A DNA stretch of 57,148 nt from Escherichia coli (GTDB lineage Bacteria; Pseudomonadota; Gammaproteobacteria; Enterobacterales; Enterobacteriaceae). The position numbers and the translations under genes were made by a program. Shown piece by piece: positions 56,594 to 57,148 of this stretch. The stretch's first letter is position 1. Every line of letters begins with the position of its first letter. The stretch lies in the NCBI RefSeq assembly GCF_003334255.1, contig NZ_QOWU01000032.1. One strand, 5' to 3'. Under the pieces are notes generated by a model. That model was not told the DNA's origin, did no database searches, and worked only from the letters and a program-made list of their open reading frames with translations.

Positions 56594-57085
56594 TTAATTT
56601 TCGTGAGGAAACGCCGTAAGGTCATCAATCATTTTTTGAAGTATTGGTGAGTCCTGACCGTCACCCCATTGAAGAATTTTTGCGGTAAGCTGATGACGCG
56701 CTAGTGCATTGAGTCCCATCTTTTTAAGTTTATGGGAGATTTTACCCATGACTTTAATCTGACCGAATGCAGTTGCGTAGGTAATCATATTGCTCTGGAT
56801 AGTGCTCATTTCATCGACTAGTAATTGCGCACGAACATCCTCTTCAAGAATACTGTCCATAGCGATGTATTTCATACCCCACATAGTTTCAATTAACATT
56901 TGAGGGAAATCAGCACAGTCCAGATCCGGCTCTTTACGGAGGCTATTTTCAAGAACGTTTAGAGCATCAGCACCTTCATCGCTGCCAAAAGGAGATTCTT
57001 CATCCCAGCAACACATATAAAGTGGATCAGTAAAATGGCACTGGAAGTTTGGGTGTGACGTTTTAACATGTGGTGATGCTGCCAA
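56594..57085 (-). CDS. Hypothetical protein of unknown function (low-GC ORF at window edge; start uncertain)
   Basis: ORF of up to 163 codons from a TTG at 57083-57085 (or 140 aa from the ATG at 57014-57016, MCCWDEESPFGSDEGADALNV...). Acidic and soluble-looking, with no motif I recognise; GC content is visibly lower (~42% by eye) than its neighbours. An in-frame stop at 57095-57097 limits any N-terminal extension. Confidence 0.4.
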   Translation of the reverse strand: MAASPHVKTSHPNFQCHFTDPLYMCCWDEESPFGSDEGADALNVLENSLRKEPDLDCADFPQMLIETMWGMKYIAMDSILEEDVRAQLLVDEMSTIQSNMITYATAFGQIKVMGKISHKLKKMGLNALARHQLTAKILQWGDGQDSPILQKMIDDLTAFPHEN

Positions 57086-57148
57086 CTTACTGATTTAGTG
57101 TATGATGGTGTTTTTGAGGTGCTCCAGTGGCTTCTGTTTCTATCAGCT

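Follow-up and report, generated by a model that had tools for sequence, protein, structure and literature searches.

A probable 3' remnant of yfeS beside an IS1 end at the edge of an Escherichia coli contig

The window (the whole 57,148-nt stretch of E. coli DNA that we analyzed) ends with a minus-strand open reading frame at 56594..57085. This ORF has 163 codons if it starts at a TTG, or gives a 140-amino-acid product from an in-frame ATG at 57014-57016. We are confident that it is the promoter-less 3' remnant of yfeS, which was inactivated by the simple transposition of IS1 into codon 86. Judging from its sequence, the remnant appears to be a pseudogene fragment of yfeS and not an intact member of that family. 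So a known gene is broken by a known element at the end of a contig; this is ordinary, and equivalent alleles are already in RefSeq. Table 1 shows the features at this end of the window.

A preliminary description of this DNA had reported the ORF with both of its potential starts, its low GC content, its acidic product, the lack of a Shine-Dalgarno sequence (SD), and the adjoining REP element. All of these are present as described. What that reading missed is that the terminal 77 bases of the window (57072-57148) are IS1. The correction disposes of a misleading clue, since the "unknown ORF" turns out to be a K-12 gene that was already known; as biology, this matters little.

Table 1. Features around the yfeS remnant, by position in the window.
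Feature	Position	Strand	Basis or remarks
cysM (cysteine synthase B)	55494..56405	+	Annotation of identical sequence in RefSeq genomes; convergent core neighbor and left border of the indel
cysM-yfeS convergent spacer with composite REP/BIME	56406..56593		Within the 958-bp indel that also includes yfeS
3' remnant of yfeS (b2420)	56594..57071	-	100% identical to K-12 yfeS nt 258-735; alignment to strain G1/2 ends at 57071
One copy of the putative 8-bp target-site duplication, TAACATGT	57064..57071		yfeS coding nt 258-265, ACATGTTA; the second copy would be past the window
Spurious 5' extension of the ORF	57072..57085	-	TTG plus four codons (MAASP) from the IS1 inverted repeat, in the yfeS frame
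Left (insA-proximal) end of IS1	57072..57148	+	Terminal inverted repeat GGTGATGCTGCCAACTTACTGAT; 77/77 nt identical to K-12 IS1A nt 768-692
Promoter-like site	57079-57106	+	Reads into IS1 (promoter scan)
Start of insA within the IS1 end	GTG at 57127	+	First 7 codons, MASVSIS

The open reading frame and the IS1 junction

In K-12, yfeS (b2420) has 735 nt and encodes a WGR-domain protein of 244 amino acids; it directly follows cysM, in convergent orientation. The preliminary description had suggested, with some uncertainty, that the K-12 gene after cysM was a different one. That was mistaken, as the ORF is K-12 yfeS at 100% identity. The remnant starts with the last base of codon 86 and continues through codons 87-244 to the stop codon, and its translation is residues 87-244 of YfeS. 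Thus, what had been described as a gene of 140 or 163 codons is the latter part of a 244-codon gene, cut by IS1. As a yfeS ortholog, the remnant has the expected identity to K-12 (over nt 258-735) and the expected position: the cysM side lies in the window, and the yfeK side is known from strain G1/2 and from contigs with the complementary junction (see below). It does not have the full 244-codon frame with an SD and an ATG.

The other side of the junction has the terminal inverted repeat and the insA-proximal end that are expected for the IS1 family. Just 77 of the 768 nt of IS1 are within the window, and a single junction is visible. The GTG start codon of insA begins at the 56th nt of this IS1 end, and in the K-12 annotation, insA begins 55 nt from the end of IS1A. 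Because everything from 57072 onward is IS1, the TTG and the first five codons of the ORF (MAASP) are inverted-repeat sequence. We looked for an SD before the TTG and ATG starts, and neither has one; the genuine start of K-12 yfeS has a strong SD (CAGGAGGTAACATG).

The preliminary description had proposed that the ORF was an independent and intact accessory gene of 140-163 codons, perhaps the first of a cluster that lies beyond the window. There is something to be said for this: all 163 codons are open, the GC content is low, no protein family matches, and gene callers do sometimes call the 140-amino-acid version. (That product is on record in public annotations, exactly, as "YfeS"; the exact 163-amino-acid product has no match in a collection of about 15 billion proteins.) However, apart from its IS1 part, the ORF matches the final 478 nt of yfeS (735 nt) at every base. 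Furthermore, the TTG belongs to IS1, an SD precedes the real start but neither of these two, and starting at the ATG would drop the invariant motif H92-P93. The genes beyond the window would not form an accessory cluster either: G1/2 and the complementary-junction contigs show the rest of yfeS and then the core genes yfeK, pdxK, and crr. This reading is refuted by the identity with yfeS and by the boundary with IS1, and we give it virtually no chance of being correct.

The statement that the product has no recognizable motif did hold up, as the remnant has no match in Pfam (even at E ≤ 10) or in NCBIfam; in particular, it does not match the WGR profile. Homology searches identified the ORF at the nucleotide level, as K-12 yfeS, and profile searches with the remnant gave no family. 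The product is acidic, with a pI of 4.79 and 24 aspartate or glutamate residues versus 13 lysine or arginine residues.

The far side of IS1 and the ends of the contig

We propose that IS1 (768 bp) transposed into codon 86 of yfeS, directly after the WGR domain, and that the 8-bp target TAACATGT was duplicated upon insertion. If so, the sequence beyond the window would contain the rest of IS1, the second copy of TAACATGT, nt 1-265 of yfeS, and then yfeK, pdxK, and crr; we infer this arrangement for the window's own strain from the related sequences that are described below. The insertion would sever the remnant from the sigma-E promoter of yfeK-yfeS and from the SD, and it would leave the upstream gene yfeK and the convergent gene cysM unaffected.

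The closest relative that we found is E. coli G1/2, a human commensal from Germany. Positions 1-57071 of the window are 99.993% identical to G1/2, with 3 mismatches and one 1-bp gap in a homopolymer, and the alignment terminates precisely at the IS1 boundary (57071). (We placed two of the mismatches, at 726 and 21080. The gap is the sole indel in 57 kb; it is at about 25871, in the poly-A tract of the maeB-eutS spacer, with A8 in the window and A9 in G1/2.) In G1/2, yfeS is intact, with no IS1 inside, and is followed by yfeK, pdxK, and crr. Since such a near-identical genome has an intact yfeS, the insertion of IS1 is very recent relative to G1/2.

We predicted the products of the upstream half of the gene for a duplication of 8 bp and for a duplication of 9 bp before looking them up, and both were found exactly in public data. 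At least 24 public contigs encode the 89-amino-acid form (...EEIGLHVR). In the complementary contigs (for instance, L035-L037), nt 1-265 of yfeS are joined to the other end of IS1 (GGTAATGACTCC...), and yfeK, pdxK, and crr precede. Together with the start of the remnant at nt 258, this implies an 8-bp duplication of ACATGTTA (TAACATGT). One Logan contig shows a duplication of 9 bp, not 8 bp, so similar alleles may have arisen more than once.

We also considered that the join between yfeS and IS1 might be a chimera of the assembly, with an intact yfeS in the genome. The junction is 77 nt from the end of the contig, inside a multicopy repeat. Also, the exact junction is absent from all 5426 complete RefSeq genomes of E. 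coli, in which the nearest junctions are 12, 82, and 229 bp away; the exact nt-258 allele was seen only in draft and metagenome assemblies. But an independent metagenome contig (L034), assembled with a different k-mer size, has the identical left junction with 118 nt of IS1. Furthermore, the opposite junction, with the canonical 8-bp duplication, is in those 24 or more contigs, and a de Bruijn contig enters a repeat only where reads span the junction. A chimeric join is extremely unlikely.

The other end of the window is similar. Positions 1-78 are the terminal 78 nt of IS186/IS421 (100% identical to nt 1267-1344 of IS186A), which adjoins hyfA at a site of the GGGG...CCCC type. This insertion of an IS186-family element (IS421) beside hyfA is common to strains G1/2, G6/7, and G8. 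(We also noticed that hyfB is annotated as frameshifted in G1/2.) So each end of the window is about 77 nt of an IS end, from IS186 on the left and from IS1 on the right, and the window looks like a whole short-read contig from a de Bruijn assembly with k=77 that ended at two multicopy repeats. In particular, the contig probably stops at 57148 because IS1 is a multicopy repeat. Both ends of the window can be viewed as assembly breaks at IS elements.

IS1 also promotes deletions of adjacent DNA. Such a deletion, or another rearrangement, might have removed or relocated the upstream portion of yfeS, possibly along with yfeK and further DNA. The window does show just one junction. Furthermore, in the ETEC O6:H16 strains, an identically oriented IS1 lies 229 bp further along, and a deletion from that copy could in principle create the junction of the window. 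However, the closest genome, G1/2, lacks any IS1 in yfeS, and the complementary junction with the 8-bp duplication is frequent among public contigs, as would be expected of a simple insertion. We consider a rearrangement to be very unlikely, and simple transposition remains our explanation.

The C-terminal domain of YfeS and the fate of the remnant

The WGR domain (PF05406) is residues 9-71 of full-length K-12 YfeS (E = 1.2e-17) and is upstream of the break. The remnant encodes the rest of the protein, a helical C-terminal domain, minus its first ~10 residues. In the AlphaFold2 model of full-length YfeS (pLDDT 97.5, pTM 0.93), the N-terminal WGR domain is predicted to pack against this helical domain. 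The C-terminal domain alone is also predicted with confidence (pLDDT 95.8).

An exhaustive HMMER search found 156 clusters (at 50% identity) with the C-terminal domain. These proteins are WGR fusions of about 245 amino acids, stand-alone proteins of 165-190 amino acids, or fusions to DUF4253 or DUF4240; in some long homologs, the domain is also weakly fused to an Imm26-like segment. The conserved positions are H92-P93, P113-F-G-x-D-x-G119, and G195. The stand-alone homologs have a conserved start, YFDDxExGL, which in YfeS begins about 10 residues upstream of the break and is missing from the remnant.

No Pfam family matched the C-terminal domain in 61 homologs, and a likeness of the PFGxDxGxD motif to DUF4259 was not supported. 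Similarly, a search of PDB sequences with the family profile gave no match for the domain, PADLOC (anti-phage defense) had no match for the remnant or for full-length YfeS, and NCBIfam covers the WGR part only. Neighbors in AFDB50 come from many phyla and are all uncharacterized proteins labeled "WGR domain-containing" or "MolR family"; the latter label is a hint that MolR-type WGR proteins share this module. The gene neighborhoods of distant homologs, which include a methyltransferase and the Bat/MoxR aerotolerance operon of Bacteroidota, show no conservation and offered no clue to the function. So two-thirds of YfeS is a domain that is confidently predicted to fold and that lies outside of any curated family.

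Could the remnant still be expressed, by read-through or by transcription from IS1 and from the TTG or another start, and function as a stand-alone C-terminal domain? This domain does occur naturally in stand-alone proteins of 165-190 amino acids, and the high pLDDT suggests that it would fold by itself. But the remnant lacks both an SD and the conserved YFDDxExGL beginning of the stand-alone homologs, and at the junction, the promoter scan gave no promoter-like site that reads outward. Also, the other independent insertions of IS1 are spread from nt 29 to nt 552 of yfeS, which suggests plain inactivation. We think that a working remnant is improbable, about as much so as a rearrangement. Although read-through or outward transcription from IS1 is possible in principle, the remnant is probably dead and not expressed as a protein, because it has no sigma-E promoter, no SD, no outward promoter-like site, no WGR domain, and no YFDDxExGL start.

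As for the intact gene, yfeK-yfeS has been described as a sigma-E operon (PMC11502571, PMC2685091). Deletion of yfeS makes the strain sensitive to boric acid, and a plasmid copy complements this phenotype only in part (PMC11502571). During post-segregational killing by a restriction-modification system, yfeS was induced together with rpoE, and overexpression of yfeS was harmless (PMC2685091).

Variable presence and recurrent disruption of yfeS

The preliminary description had suggested that the ORF was strain-variable and possibly acquired horizontally, and that it would turn out otherwise if it were a core gene with typical codon usage. The first part is borne out: yfeS DNA is present in 1387 of 5426 complete E. 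coli genomes, whether we used megablast or sensitive blastn, and always with at least 95% identity, while the 3' 506 bp of cysM (55900-56405) is in 5426 of 5426. So yfeS, which is usually treated as a "conserved" y-gene of K-12, is in only about a quarter of complete E. coli genomes. The second part is probably correct as well, given the outlying GC content of yfeS and its lower divergence than its flanks. Full-length yfeS has 39.2% GC (z = -4.9) and 36.7% GC at third codon positions (GC3; z = -4.4). These are the lowest values when compared to the 52 other genes of the 57-kb stretch, which have a mean GC of 54.2% (standard deviation 3.1), and in the proposed check of composition and codon usage against the genes of the window, yfeS was the strongest outlier of all. 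The part of yfeS in the window has 41.6% GC (GC3 of 37.1%), as compared to 58.7% for cysA (GC3 of 64.5%) and 56.4% for cysM (GC3 of 61.7%).

In genomes that lack yfeS, such as O157:H7 or APEC O2:K1, the stop codon of yfeK is 2 bp from the stop codon of cysM. The difference is a 958-bp indel that includes the REP spacer, yfeS, the yfeK-yfeS spacer, and the final 9 bp of yfeK. (On the K-12 locus L004, this segment is the reverse complement of 1336-2293.) YfeK ends in ...PAEGN where the cassette is present and in ...PAQ where it is absent. An 8-bp repeat, GGATTAAT, borders the segment in K-12, and the empty site is not what clean recombination between the two repeats would give. We found no integrase and no tRNA at the cassette; the GGATTAAT repeat is its sole border feature. 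Lying between cysM and yfeK, yfeS is a single-gene cassette and does not mark the border of an island. In O157:H7 ATCC 35150 (L005), which lacks yfeS, we noticed that yfeK is annotated as frameshifted, so the whole sigma-E unit yfeK-yfeS is inactive there.

The REP/BIME in the spacer is at about 56421-56559, with inverted arms at 56460-56475 and 56507-56522, and 56466-56508 matches the Rfam family ES036 (CssrF). It is an inverted copy, with 89% identity, of the REP element at 45497-45638 in the yfeX-pbp4b spacer. Elsewhere in the window, Rfam's naRNA4 matches twice: in the eutG-eutH spacer at 33545-33729, which has a 100-bp unit in 1.9 copies (97% match; a REP325-type element), and at 8811-8887, between ypfH and ypfN.

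In two divergent lineages, yfeS is more similar to K-12 than its flanking genes are. For E. coli AST85 (L007), the identity to K-12 is 97.4% for yfeS, as compared to 93.2% for cysM, 91.2% for cysA, 94.1% for yfeK, and 92.5% for pdxK. For a metagenome-assembled genome that is labeled as Pseudocitrobacter (L012) and has the same synteny, the identity is 95.9% for yfeS, 89.6% for cysM, 87.0% for cysA, 85.5% for yfeK, and 68.6% for pdxK. That yfeS is the less diverged suggests that the cassette spread laterally by recombination. Overall, yfeS has the marks of an accessory gene: variable presence at a fixed locus, atypical composition, and a divergence that is discordant with that of its flanks.

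A scan of GTDB representative genomes, which detects only close relatives, found four yfeS loci, of which one is evident contamination, and no copy in Salmonella, Citrobacter, or Klebsiella. The contaminant is in an assembly of Alkalicoccobacillus porphyridii (L015), of the Bacillales. It is a 240-bp contig with a coverage of 0.9 and 97% identity to E. coli yfeS, and it is almost certainly from E. coli; it also surfaces as a UniProt/AFDB entry. A Bacteroidaceae genome encodes a homolog that is 53% identical to YfeS.

Where yfeS is present, it is often broken. IS1 is found in yfeS at no fewer than six distinct positions: nt 29 (in ETEC O6:H16 strains), 176, 246, 258 (the window), 280, and 552. 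All of these copies are in one orientation, although the detection of some of the sites was biased toward that orientation. For two complete 768-bp copies of IS1 at other sites in yfeS, we measured target duplications of 8 and 9 bp. In LR-03, APEC-O117H42, and CFS3246, PGAP/RefSeq annotates an incomplete "WGR domain-containing protein" and an IS1 transposase. In several other genomes (complete or near-complete; loci L025-L032), 1-bp deletions split yfeS into overlapping ORFs of 122 and 140 amino acids. The position of the frameshift differs between the two loci in which it could be read (about nt 200 in L027 and about nt 269 in L030). These frameshifts may be genuine, or they may be homopolymer errors from long reads. 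Shigella flexneri has only fragments of yfeS, and truncated YfeS products of many different lengths make up a protein cluster with 143 members.

IS1 prefers AT-rich targets, according to work from the 1980s (our literature search did not yield a citable statement of this preference), and the recurrent insertion of IS1 into yfeS fits that preference. Alternatively, it could reflect selection for the loss of yfeS. A broader speculation is that yfeS is a fairly recent import into Escherichia and is under recurrent selection for inactivation, and that its C-terminal module may define a new functional domain family. The import is suggested by the low GC content, the lower divergence than the flanks, and the relatives in gut Bacteroidota; the selection is suggested by the six or more independent IS1 sites within 735 bp, by a number of frameshift alleles, and by the fragments in Shigella. 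We consider this speculation to be unlikely. Still, the presence/absence indel, the repeated insertions of IS1, and the domain that no family covers could guide the assignment of a function to YfeS.

How does the window's allele compare to what is known? Relative to K-12 yfeS, nt 258-735 are identical, with the same frame and stop codon, and the gene is likewise convergent with cysM across a spacer that contains a REP element; but the first 257 nt of the gene (with the SD, the start codon, the WGR domain at residues 9-71, and the linker) are replaced by IS1 in the window. Relative to the 768-bp IS1A of K-12, the 77 terminal nt are identical, with the inverted repeat and the start of insA, and the target is likewise AT-rich; the duplication at the window's site is apparently 8 bp, and 9 bp was seen at other sites in yfeS. 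Among the annotated yfeS::IS1 alleles of complete genomes, those of LR-03 (AP027474), APEC-O117H42, CFS3246, AP027807, and ETEC O6:H16 involve the same gene, element, and orientation, with the insertions at nt 246, 176, 552, 280, and 29 instead of nt 258. Because the insertion points differ, these alleles of complete genomes are independent events from the allele in the window. Finally, the closest known relatives of the WGR domain of YfeS include the WGR domains of PARP1 and PARP3 and that of Bacteroides fragilis Q64V53 (PDB 2ra8), which, at 44% identity, is the best relative with a solved structure. In the PARP enzymes, the WGR domain binds nucleic acids, and by analogy, a lead for the function of intact YfeS is that it may bind nucleic acids via this domain.
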